32,000 nt of DNA from Erysipelotrichaceae bacterium (GCA_030604855.1 JAUVVC010000001.1:30001-62000), one strand, 5' to 3'. Positions 14,985-23,579 are shown, numbered from the stretch's first letter. Translations and numbers: made by a program. The notes: generated by a model not told the origin, from the sequence alone.

Positions 14985-15079
14985 ATATGAGCAAACGCTC
15001 ATATTAGTATTGATATTCCTGTGAAAAGTGCTATATTATATATGAATGATTGCTCAAGTGTTCATTCGTTGGAGGAAAT

Positions 15080-15442
15080 ATGACAGATAAAGAACGTATT
15101 GAAGTCTGTGATTGTGATGTCATCCACCGTGATGTGGTGGAATCTGCACAGAAACAAATGCCCCAAGATGAAAAGCTCTTTGATTTAGCAGAGTTCTTTA
15201 AGGTGTTTGGAGATTCCACACGTATTCGCATCCTTTGGGCTCTTGAAGATCGTGAGATGTGTGTTTGTGACATCGCGTATCTTTTAAACATGACCCAATC
15301 TGCAATCTCCCACCAACTCCGTTCCTTGAAACAAGTTAACTTGGTCAAGAATCGCAGGGAAGGAAAAGTTGTGTATTACTCCCTCAAAGATGAACACATT
15401 AAGCAGATCTTTGATATCGGTATGGAACACATTACCGAGTAG
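15080..15442 (+). CDS. cadC: ArsR/SmtB family metalloregulator, CadC-like
   Basis: ATG 15080 follows GGAGGAAAT. It has an N-terminal VCDCDV Cys pair and the alpha-3 EMCVCDIAYLL motif, then SAISHQLRSLK (HTH) and YYSLKDEHIKQI, closely paralleling pI258 CadC as I recall it. Confidence 0.8.
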   Translation: MTDKERIEVCDCDVIHRDVVESAQKQMPQDEKLFDLAEFFKVFGDSTRIRILWALEDREMCVCDIAYLLNMTQSAISHQLRSLKQVNLVKNRREGKVVYYSLKDEHIKQIFDIGMEHITE

Positions 15443-15453
15443 AAAGCATCACT

Positions 15454-17802
15454 ATGGAAAAAGAAATTCTATTAGAAGGCTTGGACTGTGCCAACTGTTC
15501 AGTCAAAATTGAAAAAGAAGTCAATGCCCTAGAAGGGGTAGAGGCGAACATAAATCTAGTGACAAAGACTTTGCGTCTGAAAACTACTATAAATCACGAT
15601 GAACGTGAACTTTTTGAACAGGTTAAGTCCATTGTGCATAAACATGAGCCGGATGTGGATGTGATCGATAAACACGCATCCAAAGCGATTGAAATCGAAG
15701 CGACTTTGGAAGGTTTAAGTTGTGCAAATTGTGCTGCAAAGATCGAGAAAGCGATTCAAGCTTTGGATGGATTAGACAATGTATCCATTGATTTCGTTTC
15801 AAAGAAGCTTCGTTTCACTACGATGAATGAGAAACAGATACAGCAGATTCACGCTCAAGTGGAAGGAATCGTACATACCATTGAACCGGATACGAAATAC
15901 ATCTTGAAACATGAACAGAAGTCTAGTCTTCAGCGTGCTTTCGATTTGAAACAATTGGGTAAACATCAGTTCAATCAAATCATACGCTTTGGGACAGGCA
16001 TCCTGTTCTTTGTGTCAGGGCTTTTCATCAAAGAACCACCGCTCTTGGAATTGAGTCTATTTCTTATCGCCTATGTGATTGTTGGGGGCGATATCATTCG
16101 TAAAGCTTTTCAAGGTGTGTTAAATAAACAATTCTTCAGTGAGAATTTCTTAATGACCATTGCCACAACCGGAGCGTTTATCGTTGGTGAGTATCCGGAA
16201 GGGGTAGGTGTCATGTTGTTTTACTTGGTGGGTGAGTTTTTCCAAGACTTGGCCGTTGATCATTCACGTAATTCGATTCAAGATCTCATGGATATCCGTC
16301 CGGATACAGCCAACCTTGTACAAGGAGATCGAATTCTTTCCGTTTCTGCGGAAAGTGTTCAAGTCCATGACATCATCCTAGTGCGTCCTGGTGAGAAAGT
16401 CCCTTTGGACGGAAGAATCATCGAAGGCTCCAGCAGCTTTGATACATCACATTTGACCGGTGAGTCCTTACCAAGAGATGTGACTGTAGATGATCAAGCC
16501 TTGGGTGGTTTCGTGAATCTCAGTGGAGTCATCAAAATCAAAGTATCCAAGCCCTTTGCGGAATCGACCGTTGCGAAGATTTTGGATTTGGTTCAAAACG
16601 CAAGCAGTCGTAAAGCCAAGACGGAACAATTCATCACGCGCTTTGCGATGGTTTATACGCCCATCGTTGTGTTTGGAGCACTGGCCTTGGCCTTTATTCC
16701 ACCTTTATTGATTCCAGGCGCAAGCCTTTATGATTGGTTCTATCGTGCGATGATCTTCTTGGTCATCTCATGTCCGTGTGCCTTGGTCATCTCCATACCA
16801 CTGGGTTTCTTTGGTGGTGTAGGTGGTGCTTCCAAGCGCGGAATTCTGGTAAAGGGAAGTAATTATCTCGAAGCGCTTCGTAAAGTCAAAACCATCGTCT
16901 TCGATAAAACAGGGACCTTAACCGAAGGAAAGTTCAGTGTTCATAAGATCATAGCAGAAGATGGCTATTCAGAAGATGAAATCTTAAGGGTAGCGGCGCA
17001 TGCGGAAAGTCATTCTACCCACCCGATCGCAAGTTCAATAAAGAAAGCGTATCGTGGTCGAATTGATTTGAATTTGGCTACAGAGATTAAAGAGTTAGCG
17101 GGTTTGGGTGTTACGATCCATTATGATGGAAAGATAATTCATGTTGGGAATCATCGTTTGATGGATTCCATTGGTTTACAGATTCCAAAACAAGCTGTTT
17201 TAGGGACTTTGATTCATGTGGCGATCGATCATGCATATGCGGGTTCCATATTAATCGCCGATACCATTAAAAAAGAAGCCAAACAAGCCATTACGGATCT
17301 TAAGCAAATGGGTATCCGTACGATACTCTTAAGTGGTGATTTGAAAGGCATTGCAAGCCAAGTTGCCTCAGACTTAGGAATTGATGAAGTCCACGCGGAA
17401 CTCTTACCTCAGGATAAAGTCGCTATTTTCGAACAACTCAATATGAGTAATAAAGATAAGACTGCTTTTGTCGGGGATGGCATCAACGATGCGCCAGTCT
17501 TGGCACGTGCGGATATCGGCATTGCGATGGGTGGTTTGGGATCGGATGCGGCGATTGAAGCCGCAGACATCGTCATCATGAATGATGAACTCACGCAAGT
17601 CGTCACCGCCATGAAGATTGCCAATAAGACACATACGATTGTCTACCAAAATATCGTCTTTGCTTTAGGTGTCAAGGCTATCTTCTTAGTACTGGGTGCC
17701 TTTGGTTTAGCCTCGATGTGGGAAGCCGTCTTTGCGGATACGGGTGTCGCTTTGATTGCGATTGCCAATGCGATGCGTGTCATGCGTACACGTAAACTTT
17801 AA
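15454..17802 (+). CDS. cadA: P1B-type heavy-metal (Cd/Zn/Pb-type) translocating ATPase with two N-terminal HMA domains
   Basis: Two CANC metal-binding domains (GLDCANCSVKIE, GLSCANCAAKIE), SCPCALV (CPC) in the membrane, DKTGTLT phosphorylation site, TGES, and the GDGINDAP hinge. Confidence 0.9.
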   Translation: MEKEILLEGLDCANCSVKIEKEVNALEGVEANINLVTKTLRLKTTINHDERELFEQVKSIVHKHEPDVDVIDKHASKAIEIEATLEGLSCANCAAKIEKAIQALDGLDNVSIDFVSKKLRFTTMNEKQIQQIHAQVEGIVHTIEPDTKYILKHEQKSSLQRAFDLKQLGKHQFNQIIRFGTGILFFVSGLFIKEPPLLELSLFLIAYVIVGGDIIRKAFQGVLNKQFFSENFLMTIATTGAFIVGEYPEGVGVMLFYLVGEFFQDLAVDHSRNSIQDLMDIRPDTANLVQGDRILSVSAESVQVHDIILVRPGEKVPLDGRIIEGSSSFDTSHLTGESLPRDVTVDDQALGGFVNLSGVIKIKVSKPFAESTVAKILDLVQNASSRKAKTEQFITRFAMVYTPIVVFGALALAFIPPLLIPGASLYDWFYRAMIFLVISCPCALVISIPLGFFGGVGGASKRGILVKGSNYLEALRKVKTIVFDKTGTLTEGKFSVHKIIAEDGYSEDEILRVAAHAESHSTHPIASSIKKAYRGRIDLNLATEIKELAGLGVTIHYDGKIIHVGNHRLMDSIGLQIPKQAVLGTLIHVAIDHAYAGSILIADTIKKEAKQAITDLKQMGIRTILLSGDLKGIASQVASDLGIDEVHAELLPQDKVAIFEQLNMSNKDKTAFVGDGINDAPVLARADIGIAMGGLGSDAAIEAADIVIMNDELTQVVTAMKIANKTHTIVYQNIVFALGVKAIFLVLGAFGLASMWEAVFADTGVALIAIANAMRVMRTRKL

Positions 17803-17979: not shown

Positions 17980-18007
17980 AAAACCGCTCTCACTAGAAGC
18001 GGTTTTT
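17980..18007. terminator. Bidirectional terminator at the left edge of the AT-rich segment
   Basis: AAAACCGC-tctcactagaa-GCGGTTTTT. It reads as a hairpin plus T-run on both strands. Confidence 0.7.
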
Positions 18008-18175
18008 GACGAATAACTGAAAAGAGGGGGCAATTCAGTTATGGAAGTATTCATTGGTGCTAATTACAAGATTCCAACTAAAATTATTTAATGATTATGA
18101 TTTCTAAAAGATATGTTTCGAATTTGTAATTCTAGACAAAATTAATATTAGACTCACTCAAAGTCAGAAAAATTT

Positions 18176-19018
18176 TTAGTTTGATGTATTTACGGTAACA
18201 ACTTTCCCATCAAGCTGAGCACCAGCCTCGATACTTATTGAAGTGCAAAATAAATCTCCTTTTACTACTGCAGATTTCTTCAAAACGATGCTTTCACTTG
18301 CTTTGACTTCACCATTTACTTCTCCAGAAATCTCTACTCGCTTAGCTTCCACATTGCCAAATACTTTTGTTTGATTATTAGCTTCAAAGGTTTCAATAAC
18401 AGAAATATTGCCTTTTAATTCAGATCCACTACATTTGACAGACTTCGCTTGTATGTTTCCTTCAATTATCGAACCAAAATTAACCTCAACAGTATCTTTG
18501 CAGTTAATATCACCCAGAATTTTACCGTTTACTATTAATGAAGTTTCTAATTCCATATTTCCATTCACGACCATCGTATTACTAATTACTGCAATCTCTT
18601 TTGATGCCCCGACATTACCATTTAAACTCATTTCATTTTCCTCTTCTTGTCCCTTTTGGTTAGTTTTGTTTGTTTTATTATCTGCTTTATAATGAGTAAT
18701 CGATTCCCAAACATTTTTCTTTTTGATAGTATCCTCCTTACTGTTTATGGCTGTATCTTCAACTAATTTTGTCTTGATAGGCTCATTCGTTTTAGTTTCT
18801 AAATCTGCAGAATCCAACTCAGCTGCATCATTTGATTTAAAAACAATAAATGGGAAATTATTACCTAACACAGAGATTGTTTTCTTCTCAACATTCTTTT
18901 GATTATCAACTTTCTGATTAGTAATTTCAATGTCTTCAAACTTATCTTCTACGACCTGAAGCAGATTTGATTTTCTTTGATTTTCTAAGTTTTTAGGAAG
19001 TTTTTTATACTTATTCAA
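18176..19018 (-). CDS. Bactofilin-domain (polymer-forming cytoskeletal) protein with a long K/N/E-rich N-terminal extension
   Basis: The C-terminal 140 aa form a beta-helical repeat (VVNGNMELETSLIVNGKILGDI...VEISGEVNGEVKA...VVKGDLFCTSISIEAGAQLDGKV) typical of PF04519. TTG 19018 lies 8 nt after AAAGGAG and is preferred over GTG 19042. Confidence 0.75.
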   Translation of the reverse strand: MNKYKKLPKNLENQRKSNLLQVVEDKFEDIEITNQKVDNQKNVEKKTISVLGNNFPFIVFKSNDAAELDSADLETKTNEPIKTKLVEDTAINSKEDTIKKKNVWESITHYKADNKTNKTNQKGQEEENEMSLNGNVGASKEIAVISNTMVVNGNMELETSLIVNGKILGDINCKDTVEVNFGSIIEGNIQAKSVKCSGSELKGNISVIETFEANNQTKVFGNVEAKRVEISGEVNGEVKASESIVLKKSAVVKGDLFCTSISIEAGAQLDGKVVTVNTSN

Positions 19019-19157
19019 GATAGATGCTCCTTTCAAGTTCACATTTTTCGAACTATTTGTTTGATAATCTCTGTATCTTATGGAGTTGAAATATAACCCA
19101 ACTCTTTTTAAACCTATAAGTTCTGAATTAGCTGTTCGGTAGGTTTCAACTCTTGAT

Positions 19158-22100
19158 TCAAAGATTTAGTAAAGCGTTTAATAGAATCTCGCTTAAGTCC
19201 CTTAATACTTCTAATTCATTTTTAGAGTAGATATGTTTGTCTCGAACAGAGTCAAAACCTATAAATCCGTAACACGCATTGTTGAACATCATTGGCAAGG
19301 TAAGCAGACTTCTTACTTCTTGAGGTTCGAGGATTAATCTCACTGCTGACTCTGGGTCAAGAAGTTCCACATCAGGGATAAAGATTGTCTCTCCAACAAT
19401 GTGGGCATTTGCCCAATCAATAATGTTGCCTAATGGTATCTTTTGAAGTGCCTCGATTTGAGGTGTTATACCTGGTGAACACCATTCGTACGTATTTGAG
19501 CAGGTGGATTCTGTCCAGTCATATTTAAAAATGTATACTCTATCAGCCTTTACAACCGTTCCAATTAACTTAAGTGATTTGCTTATCAACTTTTGATAGT
19601 CAGATTTGTCTGATCTAATGAACTCGGATGCGATTTTTAATAGTATTTTATCTATCGTTTGATCATATATTCCTTGATCAACTATAGTTGCATCAATATA
19701 GTTAAGAGGGAACTTAGAACTTAGTTCCGAAACATGTTTGAAGTATTTTTGATCTTCTTCGAAAAAGTGATGTTTTAAGATATCAAATTCAAGAACAGAT
19801 AAGAATTCTAATACAGTAATGTTATTTGATTTATACTGATCATAATAATCGTAGATCGTTCTTACTAACTTCTTATGAATAGAATGGTGTTCTTTATAGT
19901 TGATATACTTAGTTGCTTCAAGTATCTCCACTTCGTCAGTGAAGTGTCTTCCGATTTTTATCAAAAGGTTATCTAGATGATAAGTAAGTTCAATTGAATC
20001 TATAGTTCGACCTTCAAGCAATTTTCTCAAGTCATATAGTTGTGCGATGAGTTCTTGGTGTTGATGATCGATGATTCTGTTGCCAGAATTCCATTCCACT
20101 TTCCAATAATTTTTCAATTCCTTATTCTCAAATATATGTTTACTCACTGGTAGGAAATTAATATCTTTCGCTGCATGATAATAAAGTTTAAAGTCTATTA
20201 GCCTTAATGGCTTCGAAAACAGATATCCTTGTATACTATCAGGTCTTAATTCGCTTAAGATTTTGAATTGATTTAATGTTTCAACACCTTCAATCGTAAC
20301 TTCTAGATTTAAACCGTGGAGAATAGAAATAATTGCTTCAACAATTTTCAGCGACTTCTGATCACTTTCAATTGAGCTTATTAAAGAACGATCGATCTTA
20401 ACAATGTCAAGAGGGAGCATTCTAAGATAAGCAAATGAAGAATATCCAGTTCCAAAGTCATCAAGTGCTAGACTTAATCCAAGCTCTCTTAAGCGATTGA
20501 ATACTTTAATCACCTCTATACTATCCTGTACTAAACTAGACTCTGTTACTTCTAGTTTTAGCCGCTTAGGATTGATTCCGCTTCTATTGAGTTCATATTT
20601 CAGGCAATTATATAGTTCGTCTTTTCGATCAGATATTGCTATGAATGAAAGATTTATACTTATAGACAAGAGTCCAAACTTTGATTCATCCCAACTTGCC
20701 AATTTTGAACACGTCTCGTGTATGACCCAGTCTGTAATGGGTATAATCAACTTTGTCTTTTCTGCTATTGGGATGAACTCAATCGGAGAAATAACTCCCA
20801 ATTTGGGGTGATTCCATCGTAACAACGCTTCAGCTTGATCAACCATCCCTGACTGAACATTGAAAATTGGTTGGTAATATAGCTCCAATTCTTGCTTATC
20901 AAGTGAGTTTCGTAAGTCTTTCTCAAGGAGTAATTCTCGTTCAATTTTAGATGCTAAAATGGAAGTGTATTGAACATATGTATTTTTTTGTTGTTTAGCT
21001 ACTCCTAAAGCCAATTTAGCATTTCGCAAAAGATCTTTATCATAAAGCGATTTATCTATGATTTCATATCCCATACTGGCATATAAGATTTGTATTCTCT
21101 CATTTATCAATATTTGTGTAGATATTGCTCTCCTTAACAAATCCATATATTCTACGACTTCAGTTTTAGTGTGTTTATTCAGTATAACTACAAATTCATC
21201 GCCTGCATAATAAAAAATAAAGCCATTTTGATCCGTCACTTCTTTTATTCTTTGTGCTACTTGTGCAAGGATAACATCTGCTGAATAGTAGCCAATTTCA
21301 TTGCTCAACTTTCCGAAATCATCTAGATCTATGTAGATAACAGTAAATTTGTTTAAAAGCTCAGTATTTGAGATTATGCTTTCTTCAAATAAGCGTAATG
21401 CTGTTTTGTTTTTAAGCCCAGTAACTGAATCATGCAAATATAGATACTCAATTCTTTCTTTATTCATTTTTTGATCATTAATGTTCTGAATTTGAATGAT
21501 AACAGACTGTTCATTTTCAAACTCTATTGAGCTTGCTGATATGGATGCCCAATATTTTTCATGTTTGGTGTTATAAAGCTCAAGCTCGAAATTATATAGT
21601 AGTCCATTTTTTCTAATTTCACCTATTAGATAATCTGCTTGTTCTGAGTTAACTAAATAATCATCAACATTTATTTTAATGAGGTCTCTTTTTGATAACT
21701 CGAAGTCATGAATTGCGCGAGCATTTGCATATTTGACCACCTTTTCTTTACTGCTCAAAATTAAGATAGGATAGGGTGTATTATCGAGCATTCTCCTATA
21801 TTCGGAATTTTTAGATGCTTCCTCAATGATTTTACGAGTAGTAATATCGTAATGGCTTCCAGCCATTTTTAATGGTTTCCCGTAAACGTCATACTCGATT
21901 ATTTTCCCGCGATCTAGAACCCAAACCCATTTTCCACTTTTATGTCGCATACGAGCTTCAGACTCGTAAATGTCCCTTTGGTTACGAAAATAGAGATCAA
22001 GATTCATTTCAGATTTTTTAAAATCCTCACTGTGAACTAGATTTTTCCATGTCTCAATTGTGGTAGGTTGCAACTCATCTAGTTTATACCCAACAATTCC

Positions 22101-22223
22101 AGCCCATCTTTCATCGAATTTGGTCTCACCTGTAAGTACATTCCATTCCCAATTTCCGACAGTAATGCTTTCGTTAGCTGTATCGAAGTAGTAGATATCA
22201 GTGTTTAAGTACTCGTTTTTCAT
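19158..22223 (-). CDS. Multidomain c-di-GMP protein: PAS-PAS-GGDEF(degenerate AGDEF)-EAL-hemerythrin-GAF
   Basis: Approximate domain spans are PAS aa 20-130 and 140-250, GGDEF 258-420, EAL 440-680, hemerythrin 705-835 and GAF 855-1021. The GGDEF A-site is YYAGDEF. The EAL domain has YQPI, EALLRW, LEVTES, DDFGTGYSS, KIDRS, EGVET and QGYLFSKP. The hemerythrin has IDHQH, HFTDE, HHSIH and HHFFEED. Confidence 0.9.
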   Translation of the reverse strand: MKNEYLNTDIYYFDTANESITVGNWEWNVLTGETKFDERWAGIVGYKLDELQPTTIETWKNLVHSEDFKKSEMNLDLYFRNQRDIYESEARMRHKSGKWVWVLDRGKIIEYDVYGKPLKMAGSHYDITTRKIIEEASKNSEYRRMLDNTPYPILILSSKEKVVKYANARAIHDFELSKRDLIKINVDDYLVNSEQADYLIGEIRKNGLLYNFELELYNTKHEKYWASISASSIEFENEQSVIIQIQNINDQKMNKERIEYLYLHDSVTGLKNKTALRLFEESIISNTELLNKFTVIYIDLDDFGKLSNEIGYYSADVILAQVAQRIKEVTDQNGFIFYYAGDEFVVILNKHTKTEVVEYMDLLRRAISTQILINERIQILYASMGYEIIDKSLYDKDLLRNAKLALGVAKQQKNTYVQYTSILASKIERELLLEKDLRNSLDKQELELYYQPIFNVQSGMVDQAEALLRWNHPKLGVISPIEFIPIAEKTKLIIPITDWVIHETCSKLASWDESKFGLLSISINLSFIAISDRKDELYNCLKYELNRSGINPKRLKLEVTESSLVQDSIEVIKVFNRLRELGLSLALDDFGTGYSSFAYLRMLPLDIVKIDRSLISSIESDQKSLKIVEAIISILHGLNLEVTIEGVETLNQFKILSELRPDSIQGYLFSKPLRLIDFKLYYHAAKDINFLPVSKHIFENKELKNYWKVEWNSGNRIIDHQHQELIAQLYDLRKLLEGRTIDSIELTYHLDNLLIKIGRHFTDEVEILEATKYINYKEHHSIHKKLVRTIYDYYDQYKSNNITVLEFLSVLEFDILKHHFFEEDQKYFKHVSELSSKFPLNYIDATIVDQGIYDQTIDKILLKIASEFIRSDKSDYQKLISKSLKLIGTVVKADRVYIFKYDWTESTCSNTYEWCSPGITPQIEALQKIPLGNIIDWANAHIVGETIFIPDVELLDPESAVRLILEPQEVRSLLTLPMMFNNACYGFIGFDSVRDKHIYSKNELEVLRDLSEILLNALLNL

Positions 22224-22270
22224 TATGAAACCTTTCTTAATTATTTATTAATACGCTAGTTGATAGCAAA

Positions 22271-22360
22271 TAAAAAACACCTACTTGGGAACTGGCTGCC
22301 ATTTTAAAGGCCCTATAGTTTTGCGTCCAATGCTTTCGCACTGTTTGCCTTTTTCTTCAA
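22271..22360 (-). promoter_or_regulatory. c-di-GMP-I (GEMM-I) riboswitch candidate in the 5' leader of the GGDEF-EAL gene
   Basis: The minus-strand RNA reads GAAGAAAAAGGCAAACAGUGCGAAAGCAUUGGACGCAAAACUAUAGGGCCUUUAAAAUGGCAGCCAGUUCCCAAGUAGGUGUUUUUU. GGCAAAC, a 6-bp hairpin capped by GAAA, GGACGCAAA and AUGGCAGCCAGUU parallel the conserved blocks of Vc2 (GGCAAACCAUUCGAAAGAGUGGGACGCAAAGCC...) as I recall them. Confidence 0.75.
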
Positions 22361-22799
22361 TGTTGACAGAATATAACGAACAAATGTTTCAAATAATTAT
22401 TCAAGAAAATCAATGCAATCGGAATGTGGTTACTTTGACTATATTCAAAATACTTAATCTTCTTACATTATTTCATGACTCCTATTACATTTCAAGAAAA
22501 ATATTAGTACTTATTATCATAAAGTTGTTTATCCTTGTGAGATATGATGTTCTTCAATAAAAATATTGTTTTGCGTTAATGTTGATTTAATGCTCTCATA
22601 CTACTGGCAAATTGCTTATTGTGTTTCGTACAAATCTCATATGAAGATATACCACTGATTAGAATTTGGTGGAATTCTATTTTTTATAACATATTATTTT
22701 TGAATATGGATGCTAATAGAAATAGTTGTTTTAATTAATGCACTTAAGTACCACTAATTAATAATAAGTGCTAATATCAAATCACAAAGGGAAATATTT

Positions 22800-23579
22800 A
22801 TGGAAACTAAATTCAAAAAACTCATTCGTTTCAATCTTATCATGGGCTTCTTTCATTTGATTCAAGGCATCGCCATGTTGTTCTTGGCAACTTCTGTCAT
22901 CCAGAAAATCGGTGAATTCCAACCCAGCATCGTTCAGTTCTATCAGACCTTCAATCCAATGACACGATCACTTGAAGTCACTTCGAAAGTCTTGTTCGAT
23001 TTACCATTCGGTATCTTGGTCGCATCTTTTCTCTTGATCTCAGCGATTGCACATGGCTTGATCGTTCTAAACAAAGACCGTTATATTGCGGATCTGAAAA
23101 TCGGTCTCAATCGCTTCCGTTGGTTCGAATACGCTTTGAGCTCATCGATCATGATCGTCTTGATCGCAACCTTGTTTGGCATCTATGACATCGCAAGTTT
23201 AGCTTTGATCTTCATCGTCAATGCATCCATGAATCTATTTGGTTTGGATATGGAAGAATTGAATGCAGGCTTCACCAAAGGCAAAGTCAACTGGGGGCCC
23301 TTCATCTGGGGTTCATTGGCGGGCATCGCACCTTGGATCGCCATCTTCTTGTACATGACCGGAACCGGTAATTACGATCAAGTGCCTTGGTTCGTATGGG
23401 CAATCGTAGGTACATATTTTGTCGCCTTCAACACCTTCCCAATAAACATGATCGCTCAATACTTGAAATTGGGTAAGTGGAAAGATTACCTCTATGGTGA
23501 GCGTTTCTACATCATCCTCAGCTTGGCAGCGAAGTCCATCCTGGCTTGGCTTGTCCTCTTTGGTGCCATGCAACCTTAA
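22800..23579 (+). CDS. Heliorhodopsin
   Basis: 259-aa, 7-TM protein. NRFRWFEYALSSSIMIVLIA, VNASMNLFG and GERFYIILSLAAKSILAW closely parallel heliorhodopsin 48C12 (IFRWVEYSLSSSVMIVLIA, VNASMILFG, GERAYIVLSLVAKSALAW). Lys245, Glu110, His19 and His85 are all present. SD AAAGGGA lies 7 nt before the ATG. Confidence 0.9.
   Translation: METKFKKLIRFNLIMGFFHLIQGIAMLFLATSVIQKIGEFQPSIVQFYQTFNPMTRSLEVTSKVLFDLPFGILVASFLLISAIAHGLIVLNKDRYIADLKIGLNRFRWFEYALSSSIMIVLIATLFGIYDIASLALIFIVNASMNLFGLDMEELNAGFTKGKVNWGPFIWGSLAGIAPWIAIFLYMTGTGNYDQVPWFVWAIVGTYFVAFNTFPINMIAQYLKLGKWKDYLYGERFYIILSLAAKSILAWLVLFGAMQP

Follow-up and report, generated by a model that had tools for sequence, protein, structure and literature searches.

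A predicted riboswitch-linked EAL phosphodiesterase with hemerythrin and GAF domains, encoded beside a bactofilin gene in an Erysipelotrichaceae bacterium

The window analysed here is a 32,000-nucleotide (nt) stretch of the genome of an Erysipelotrichaceae bacterium (GCA_030604855.1, JAUVVC010000001.1:30001-62000), and its subject is an open reading frame (ORF) that encodes a 1021-amino-acid (aa) protein. The protein is probably a phosphodiesterase (PDE) of cyclic diguanylate (c-di-GMP) that is controlled by a riboswitch, gated by O2 or redox state and functionally tied to a bactofilin, a soluble multi-sensor enzyme encoded in a laterally acquired unit. Its N-terminal two-thirds would form a core like that of Escherichia coli DosP (PAS, PAS, a non-catalytic GGDEF and an EAL domain) that hydrolyses c-di-GMP to pGpG. 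Behind the EAL domain, flexible linkers would connect a diiron bacteriohemerythrin and a GAF domain. The PDE gene would stand first in a three-part unit of c-di-GMP-I riboswitch, phosphodiesterase and bactofilin. Among the sensors known to gate c-di-GMP enzymes by O2 or redox state are heme-PAS, globin and hemerythrin. Each component of the present system is a member of an established family; their combination was not found in the literature searched.

A Pfam scan of the 1021-aa protein found six domains, each above its curated cut-off, in the order PAS, PAS, GGDEF, EAL, hemerythrin, GAF (Table 1). This is the order that a first-pass annotation of the same DNA had given, and all of the motif strings that it quoted occur in the translation. 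Its two N-terminal PAS domains correspond to matches to PAS_3 and PAS_9. The hemerythrin and GAF domains that it had placed behind the EAL domain were both detected, the former by PF01814 at residues 715-829 (28.2 bits, cut-off 25.3). A transmembrane segment is absent from the protein (maximum Kyte-Doolittle value over 19 residues, 1.32), which is thus predicted to be soluble, and it is probably dimeric. An AlphaFold2 model built with 23 family sequences gave confident domains (mean predicted local distance difference test score, pLDDT, 81.7), with a predicted template modelling score (pTM) of 0.43 that makes their relative placement uncertain. The linkers at residues 694-704 and 832-854, which flank the hemerythrin, are disordered in the model.

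Judged from its residues, the EAL site should be catalytically competent, and hydrolysis of c-di-GMP to pGpG is expected. The translation contains the motifs YQPI, EALLR, INLS, LEVTES, DDFGTGYSS, KID, EGVE and QGY. The closest solved GGDEF-EAL sequences are MorA (4RNH) and PA0575 (5M3C) of Pseudomonas aeruginosa (E ~1e-73, ~33% identity), in which all EAL active-site motifs are the same as here. The catalytic and metal residues E465, R469, N524, E558/E561, D588/D589, K609, E645/E648 and Q665 match those of both proteins, and loop 6 (DDFGTGYSS) was intact in the alignments to both structures. The EAL catalytic columns are at least 90% conserved in 23 relatives. In a Foldseek comparison, the EAL domain matched those of MorA and BifA with a target-normalised template modelling score (TM-score) of 0.93. 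The full set of EAL signature residues listed in the first-pass annotation therefore agrees with active EAL structures and with the family. MorA and PA0575 differ from the PDE protein in having an intact GGDEF motif and in being without hemerythrin and GAF domains.

The GGDEF domain had been described as degraded at its nucleotide-binding and catalytic positions, and alignment to 5M3C and 4RNH bore this out. The translation reads NK for NR, DDFGKLSNE and YYAGDEF. The motif itself is AGDEF, the Arg before it is replaced by Tyr, and the guanine-contact Asn by Ser; further substitutions turn the Lys of DxFK into Gly and a late Arg into Asn. No RxxD I-site is present in the domain, and DQNG stands at that place. 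Relatives carry DGDEF, TGDEF, DYDEF or ESDEF, which indicates that the domain is degenerate throughout the family. The fold is still recognised by Pfam at 74.8 bits, about half of the 130-171 bits reached by the intact GGDEF genes of the same genome, and the domain does not have the residue set of an active diguanylate cyclase. Given the combined residue losses, cyclase activity of the AGDEF domain is unlikely.

Between the EAL and GAF domains, a complete bacteriohemerythrin ligand set had been proposed at about nt 19719-20111, and the range of the NCBIfam hemerythrin model TIGR02481 agrees with it (Table 1). The translation contains IDHQH, HFTDE, HHSIH and HFFEED. The diiron ligands are H722, H760, E764, H779, H783, H819 and D824, that is, five His, one Glu and one Asp, and all seven align one-to-one with H23, H59, E63, H78, H82, H118 and D123 of DcrH-Hr (2AVK/2AWC). 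All seven are the same in each of 22 family sequences, even where identity over the aligned hemerythrin-GAF region falls to 36%. Such constancy speaks for selection that maintains the metal site, also in those forms that have no C-terminal cyclase. In the AlphaFold2 model the domain is a four-helix hemerythrin bundle at residues 716-834 (helices 716-738, 743-770, 776-798 and 804-834; pLDDT ~80-95). The hemerythrin is predicted to bind iron and to sense O2 or redox state.

DcrH of Desulfovibrio vulgaris gave the best solved sequence match for the hemerythrin domain (2AWC/2AVK, E 4e-5), and its C-terminal hemerythrin is a precedent for such a sensor placed after the signalling domain. DcrH differs in its methyl-accepting chemotaxis output, where the present protein is a c-di-GMP enzyme, and it is without GAF. 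The title of the DcrH-Hr structure paper calls the N-terminal loop of the hemerythrin 'fluxional'. In Bhr-HD-GYP of Ferrovum sp. PN-J185 and Vc Bhr-DGC of Vibrio cholerae, a bacteriohemerythrin is tied to a c-di-GMP enzyme and controls it, the reduced form being more active (PMC9388753, PMC8846402). Both differ from the PDE protein in having an N-terminal hemerythrin as their sole sensor and HD-GYP or GGDEF outputs, whereas the present protein has an EAL output, a C-terminal or internal hemerythrin and, in addition, a GAF domain, a pseudo-GGDEF and two PAS domains. The arrangement of these two enzymes, with the hemerythrin directly before the catalytic output, is not found here, as the hemerythrin follows the EAL and precedes the GAF domain.

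The C-terminal domain has a GAF fold, with target-normalised TM-scores of 0.8-0.87 to GAF structures in Foldseek. A subfamily signature, DRxYIF..NTxEWC..LQ..W..Q..S..P..GFxGFDxV, is strictly kept. Of 110 homologous GAFs that lie outside the PDE family, mostly in sensor histidine kinases, 107 (97%) have the Cys corresponding to C915. Taken alone, the GAF shares 40-54% identity with those of sensor kinases in many phyla. A PDB sequence search with the domain returned no meaningful match and no solved relative. Cyanobacteriochrome and phytochrome GAFs rank first in Foldseek. They share only 13-17% identity with the domain and are heavily represented in the PDB, and as no heme oxygenase (PF01126) is encoded in the genome either, a bilin-binding GAF was rejected. 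A GAF that binds heme, as in MsmS, was considered as another candidate. As a side observation, homologues of this GAF subfamily (at loci L045-L073) span Bacteroidales, Brocadiia, Thermotogaceae, Leptospiraceae, Cloacimonadota and others, with identity of up to 52%.

Upstream of the PDE gene lies a c-di-GMP-I (GEMM-I) riboswitch aptamer (Table 1), the only RF01051 match in the 1.62-Mb genome. Its core is canonical (GGCAAAC, GACGCAAA, CAGCC), as in Vc2-type c-di-GMP-I riboswitches. The GAAA-capped stem covaries in five aligned leaders (CAGUGC/GCAUUG, CAAUGU/ACAUUG, CAACGU/AUGUUG), and this is the only helix that varies. The same aptamer was found upstream of the homologous genes in L015/16, L017/44, L022, L077 and L018/19, and thus precedes all five short-form genes examined and one medium-form gene (forms described below). 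The c-di-GMP-I-GGC variant (RF03167), which was the first label in a permissive scan, was ruled out. It scored 56 bits against 59, below its gathering score, RF01051 scores higher, and GACGCAAA has the canonical A, not G, at the variant-defining position.

Compared with the Vc2 type, the present riboswitch differs in its U-tract, which starts only 6 nt after the aptamer, and in its target, the messenger's own phosphodiesterase together with a bactofilin. The T run of the U-tract is invariant in five aligned leaders, and its closeness to the aptamer leaves no room for a separate terminator hairpin. One possibility is that it base-pairs with the A-rich sequence 5' of the aptamer, so that the aptamer, once closed by its ligand, would itself act as a terminator (an OFF switch). 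Alternatively, it follows a weak, poorly conserved hairpin that competes or overlaps with the aptamer (an ON switch). Such a terminator-like hairpin (GACGC...GGUGU) overlaps the aptamer; it has a weak folding energy of -8 kcal/mol and is missing from L017 and L018. A consensus scan found a promoter-like site about 110 nt upstream of the riboswitch (Table 1). It matches at 10 of 12 positions and has an extended -10 element, and is weak evidence of a promoter, such sites being no commoner here than in shuffled sequence.

The sole bactofilin gene of the genome begins 139 nt 3' of the PDE stop codon. Its longest ORF would start at GTG 19042 (18176-19042, minus strand). The TTG start at 19018 has AAGGAG 8 nt upstream and is in agreement with the conserved N-terminus and with 280-aa database entries. 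Alignment of four orthologues gave the layout of a basic N-terminal peptide (MNKYKKLPKNL), a variable linker of about 120 residues and the bactofilin core. The same core domain occurs in BacE/BacF of Bacillus subtilis, also a flagellated Bacillota organism. BacE/F were reported to be needed for assembly of the flagellar hook and filament (PMC4627819), with strain-dependent effects (PMC9103452). The present protein differs from BacE/BacF in its ~120-residue linker, its distinct conserved N-terminal peptide and the linkage of its gene to c-di-GMP enzymes.

A search with the hemerythrin-GAF region returned about 25 proteins, almost all of metagenomic origin, that share this Pfam set. Long forms (1570-1577 aa) consist of three PAS domains, a degenerate GGDEF, EAL, hemerythrin, GAF, two further PAS domains and a second GGDEF with an intact RWGGDEF motif; medium forms (1410-1422 aa) are the same without this last GGDEF, and short forms (1021-1172 aa) end after the GAF. 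The long forms explain the position of sensors behind the EAL domain, since there hemerythrin-GAF stands at the N-terminus of a second module, a cyclase, as its sensor block. In a tree of the shared region from degenerate GGDEF to GAF, which has a midpoint root only and does not fix the direction of loss or gain, the short forms make one clade (Shimodaira-Hasegawa-like approximate likelihood ratio test, SH-aLRT, 100) and medium forms arise at least twice. The protein of the window belongs to a branch without the terminal cyclase module. At L076 (954-5762), a 1413-aa PDE-hemerythrin-GAF-PAS gene is followed by a separate 157-aa GGDEF ORF and then by a bactofilin gene, which represents either a long form split into two genes or a frameshift or assembly error. 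Within the GTDB family (201 genomes), no genome other than this one and two of the same genus has the complete hemerythrin-GAF block; the proteins of those two are long forms of 32-34% identity. In a species-representative collection, the only other full match was in Erysipelotrichaceae bacterium UBA4808 (60%).

Linkage of riboswitch, PDE and bactofilin is complete in the short-form loci that were compared. All three occur together in 5 of 5 short-form loci examined (47-100% identity), namely the window itself (100% PDE identity), L015/L016 (87%), L017/L044 (60%), L077 (P0006) and L022 (47%). A bactofilin gene lies downstream of the PDE in seven family loci, five of them short-form and two of the P0012 clade. 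The medium-form locus L018/19 has the riboswitch and no bactofilin. A bactofilin without the riboswitch was found at L075 (long) and L076 (split), and neither was found at the long-form loci L020/21 and L078. The long-form locus L042 has no riboswitch, and no bactofilin was seen in its ORF list, of which no bactofilin scan was made. At L080 (1-7882), a 45%-identical bactofilin with the N-terminus MNKFKKLPKNL stands behind a PAS-PAS-GGDEF-HD-GYP gene, and no riboswitch was detected in that stretch. With the EAL loci, this shows that the bactofilin subfamily accompanies PDE-type genes of two unrelated catalytic classes. Genes for a CheB-CheR-PAS fusion and a CHASE4-PAS-GGDEF-HD-GYP protein lie upstream at L080. 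A metagenome scan with the bactofilin alignment returned one near-identical locus amid many pattern matches.

The three-part unit coincides with an island of low GC content. Its GC of 0.323, against a genome mean of 0.425 (sd 0.024), falls in the lowest 0.6% of the 4.6-kb segments of the genome, and the PDE gene has a GC of 0.337 against 0.41-0.46 in the ten other GGDEF/EAL genes. The 47%-identical homologous unit at L022 lies in a contig of uniformly 0.27 GC. The island and this copy together make the unit look imported from a lower-GC relative, and on base composition it was probably acquired laterally. An empty insertion site was not shown among four same-genus genomes, because these are not syntenic here: the heliorhodopsin gene that adjoins the island is missing in them or lies in another context, and the nearby ATPase gene is 55% identical and elsewhere.

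The best full-length structural match to the PDE protein was E. coli DosP (PdeO; 9CMF, 9BKV; Foldseek E 1e-42 to 1e-37), which has the same core order of PAS, PAS, degenerate GGDEF and active EAL. The two differ in their sensors, since DosP holds heme in its N-terminal PAS, whereas the PDE protein has the diiron hemerythrin and the GAF after the EAL. The DosP equivalog model NF008467 reached 294.7 bits against a threshold of 857, with the match limited to residues 250-677. DosP is a gas- or redox-gated PDE paired with the sensor cyclase DosC, and a candidate partner is present here. Contig C4 (113331-114899, plus strand) encodes a membrane protein of 523 aa. Its N-terminal region is multi-pass, an intact GGDEF (RWGGEEF, 139 bits) comes next, and the bacteriohemerythrin at its C-terminus has all ligands and is 32% identical to that of the PDE. 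By analogy with DosC and DosP, this protein could be the counterpart of the PDE. The c-di-GMP network of the genome comprises 11 GGDEF loci, 5 EAL loci and one PilZ gene beside flagellin genes.

In the proposed working of the system, in which enzyme activity, iron binding, the active redox state, the sign of the riboswitch and any contact between PDE and bactofilin are inferred, cellular c-di-GMP would set expression of the operon through the riboswitch. Expression tied to c-di-GMP in this way would be a feedback on the degradation of the messenger itself. The oxidation or O2 state of the diiron site would shift the N-terminal loop of the hemerythrin, which is joined directly to the last EAL helix, and EAL activity would change. 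The PAS and GAF domains may add further inputs. The co-expressed bactofilin could serve as the output in the cell, or as a scaffold at the membrane by which the enzyme is localised. A more specific version, which we regard as speculative and unlikely to hold in all its parts, makes the island a portable, self-contained c-di-GMP homeostat. The riboswitch would read the c-di-GMP level and the hemerythrin- and GAF-gated EAL domain would degrade the messenger solely under a defined O2 or redox state, while a dedicated bactofilin would dock the enzyme at the membrane through its invariant peptide MNKYKKLPKNL and so set up a c-di-GMP sink at one site, such as the flagellar or division apparatus.

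Several observations weigh against a riboswitch-controlled EAL domain gated by the hemerythrin. The Pfam score of the hemerythrin is marginal (28.2 against 25.3), though its ligand pattern is perfect, and the bacteriohemerythrin subfamily model NF033749 was not reached (52.1 against 84). The linkers on both sides of the hemerythrin are predicted to be flexible, and together with the pTM of 0.43 they leave no signalling interface to be read from the AlphaFold2 model. The expression platform of the riboswitch is ambiguous, covariation settling neither OFF nor ON, and the operon structure is deduced only from the 139-nt gap without a predicted terminator. In the long forms, moreover, hemerythrin-GAF precedes PAS-PAS-GGDEF and may have evolved to control that cyclase, not the EAL. 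The tail of the short form could accordingly be a remnant of a bifunctional ancestor with both PDE and diguanylate cyclase modules (PAS, degenerate GGDEF, EAL, hemerythrin, GAF, PAS, PAS, GGDEF), serving mainly dimerisation or stability and giving no redox input to the EAL. The 1570-1577-aa forms, with their intact RWGGDEF after hemerythrin-GAF-PAS-PAS, fit such an ancestor, as do the loss or splitting off of the terminal GGDEF more than once (the tree and the 157-aa ORF in L076) and a bactofilin linkage that occurs to either side of the midpoint root and so would allow a long ancestor. However, the seven ligands and the entry loop W-x3-W-x-SG-x3-ID-x-QH are invariant across the short clade, down to 47% identity, where a tail that served only as a spacer should have degenerated like the GGDEF motif, and the midpoint rooting does not establish the direction of loss or gain. 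We consider a remnant quite improbable. Much less probable still is a bifunctional enzyme that makes and degrades c-di-GMP through a still active AGDEF domain. An AGDEF site can be active, as in V. cholerae VCA0965 (PMC3974145), which qualifies the reading of the motif taken alone, and D299/D301 and D342-E343-F344 are conserved. Against this, several other substrate or transition-state contacts are replaced by the Tyr, Ser, Gly and Asn described above, the hidden Markov model (HMM) score is half of what the intact cyclases of this genome reach, and orthologues carry DYDEF or ESDEF.

Two further alternatives concern the signal and the output. The hemerythrin could report iron, NO or peroxide stress in place of O2 or redox state, linking c-di-GMP to iron or nitrosative stress. 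Hemerythrin-like domains also occur in metal-transporting P1B-5 ATPases, where they relate to metal and not to O2 (PMC9388753), Bhr-HD-GYP formed no stable O2 adduct and held iron only when reduced (PMC8846402), and the genome encodes two further HHE-type hemerythrin proteins. Yet the ligand set is of the O2-carrier or DcrH type (five His, one Glu, one Asp) and differs from the reduced HHE set, the unit holds no genes for iron uptake or NO detoxification, and the neighbouring P-type ATPase and ArsR genes are outside the island and of native GC. A signal other than O2 or redox state is judged to have little probability. The enzyme could also act mainly through contacts with bactofilin, as a trigger enzyme or receptor similar to PdeR or PdeL, so that c-di-GMP binding and turnover at the EAL steer bactofilin assembly or localisation and not the global pool. 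This would suit the strict PDE-bactofilin adjacency in seven family loci, the presence of the same bactofilin subfamily beside an HD-GYP enzyme, the single bactofilin gene of the genome, and an N-terminal peptide, MNK(Y/F)KKLPKNL, that is invariant while the next ~120 residues of linker are free to vary. On the other side, the peptide could simply target the membrane, and medium and long forms without a bactofilin neighbour exist. We hold this alternative to be unlikely as well, and a PDE whose activity is gated by O2 or redox state and whose expression is set by the riboswitch remains the preferred reading.

Only one cyclase (Bhr-DGC) and one HD-GYP enzyme have been characterised among hemerythrin c-di-GMP enzymes. 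According to a 2022 review, Bhr-HD-GYP is the only hemerythrin phosphodiesterase known, and none with an EAL domain had been found (PMC9388753). The literature searched, to late 2026, gave no later report of a characterised hemerythrin-EAL enzyme, and the order PAS-PAS-GGDEF-EAL-hemerythrin-GAF is not known to have been characterised. The PDE protein and its ~25 relatives give a concrete family for this missing class. The long, medium and short forms are a natural deletion series, which could show whether hemerythrin-GAF controls the EAL or the C-terminal GGDEF. A strict association of riboswitch, PDE and bactofilin was not found in the literature searched; a search for a link between bactofilin and c-di-GMP riboswitches gave one match, on CdbA, which is unrelated. 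This association, together with the HD-GYP-linked bactofilin, suggests a connection between c-di-GMP and a cytoskeletal polymer in Bacillota. Apparently transferred laterally as a cassette of 4.7 kb, the unit may be a signalling module that genomes readily exchange. If the homeostat version were true, the island would hold the first hemerythrin-controlled EAL phosphodiesterase and the first direct functional link of the bactofilin cytoskeleton to c-di-GMP turnover.

Table 1 Features of the low-GC island and of the PDE gene; positions are counted from the first letter of the window.
Feature	Position	Strand	Details
Low-GC island with riboswitch, PDE and bactofilin	18050..22790		GC 0.323; 4.7 kb
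Bactofilin gene, 280 aa	18176..19018	-	PF04519 94.6 bits, cut-off 27.9; TTG start at 19018
Coding sequence, 1021-aa PAS-PAS-degenerate GGDEF-EAL-hemerythrin-GAF protein	19158..22223	-	Stop codon included; ORF open throughout; start ATG at 22223
GAF domain, aa 876-1015	19179..19598	-	Pfam PF01590 33.2 bits, cut-off 22.4
Bacteriohemerythrin domain, aa 707-830	19734..20105	-	TIGR02481 57.4, cut-off 51.75; 7/7 diiron ligands
EAL domain, aa 435-672	20208..20921	-	Pfam PF00563 234.2 bits, cut-off 31.3
Degenerate GGDEF domain (AGDEF), aa 263-414	20982..21437	-	Pfam PF00990 74.8 bits
PAS_9 domain, aa 151-249	21477..21773	-	Pfam 33.1 bits
PAS_3 domain, aa 35-123	21855..22121	-	Pfam 68.4 bits
Ribosome-binding site GAAAGG	22231..22236	-	7 nt before ATG at 22223; read from sequence
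Conserved U-tract UUUUUUAUUU, part of expression platform	22268..22277	-	Starts 6 nt after aptamer
c-di-GMP-I (GEMM-I) riboswitch aptamer	22284..22359	-	RF01051 64.5 bits, gathering score 35; 60 nt upstream of ATG
Promoter-like site TTGAAA, 17 nt spacer, TG-AATAAT	22467..22495	-	~110 nt upstream of riboswitch; consensus scan

The island is adjoined by a divergent heliorhodopsin gene (PF18761, 302 bits; 22800-23579, plus strand). Only the window and its 87% relative (L015) show this adjacency; as it is not kept in L017, L022 and L077, heliorhodopsin was rejected as a functional partner. A 78%-identical heliorhodopsin occurs in another context in the same-genus genomes G159 and G194. The gene is probably not part of the unit and marks the insertion site. 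On the other side, at 15050-17802 (plus strand), genes for an ArsR-family regulator and then a P1B-type ATPase with two HMA domains have native GC; a bidirectional hairpin at about 17985-18005 ends these genes and marks the left edge of the island. Other AT-rich stretches of the genome, at C2:1-6500, C7:1-3500 and C2:169000-174500 (GC 0.28-0.34), are possibly further acquired islands. Two candidate c-di-GMP-II riboswitches lie elsewhere, at C8:10211-10294 and C2:258125-258209 (both minus strand). Their 46.8 and 45.2 bits fall just below the Rfam gathering score of 53.5, with E ~1e-9 for the genome.

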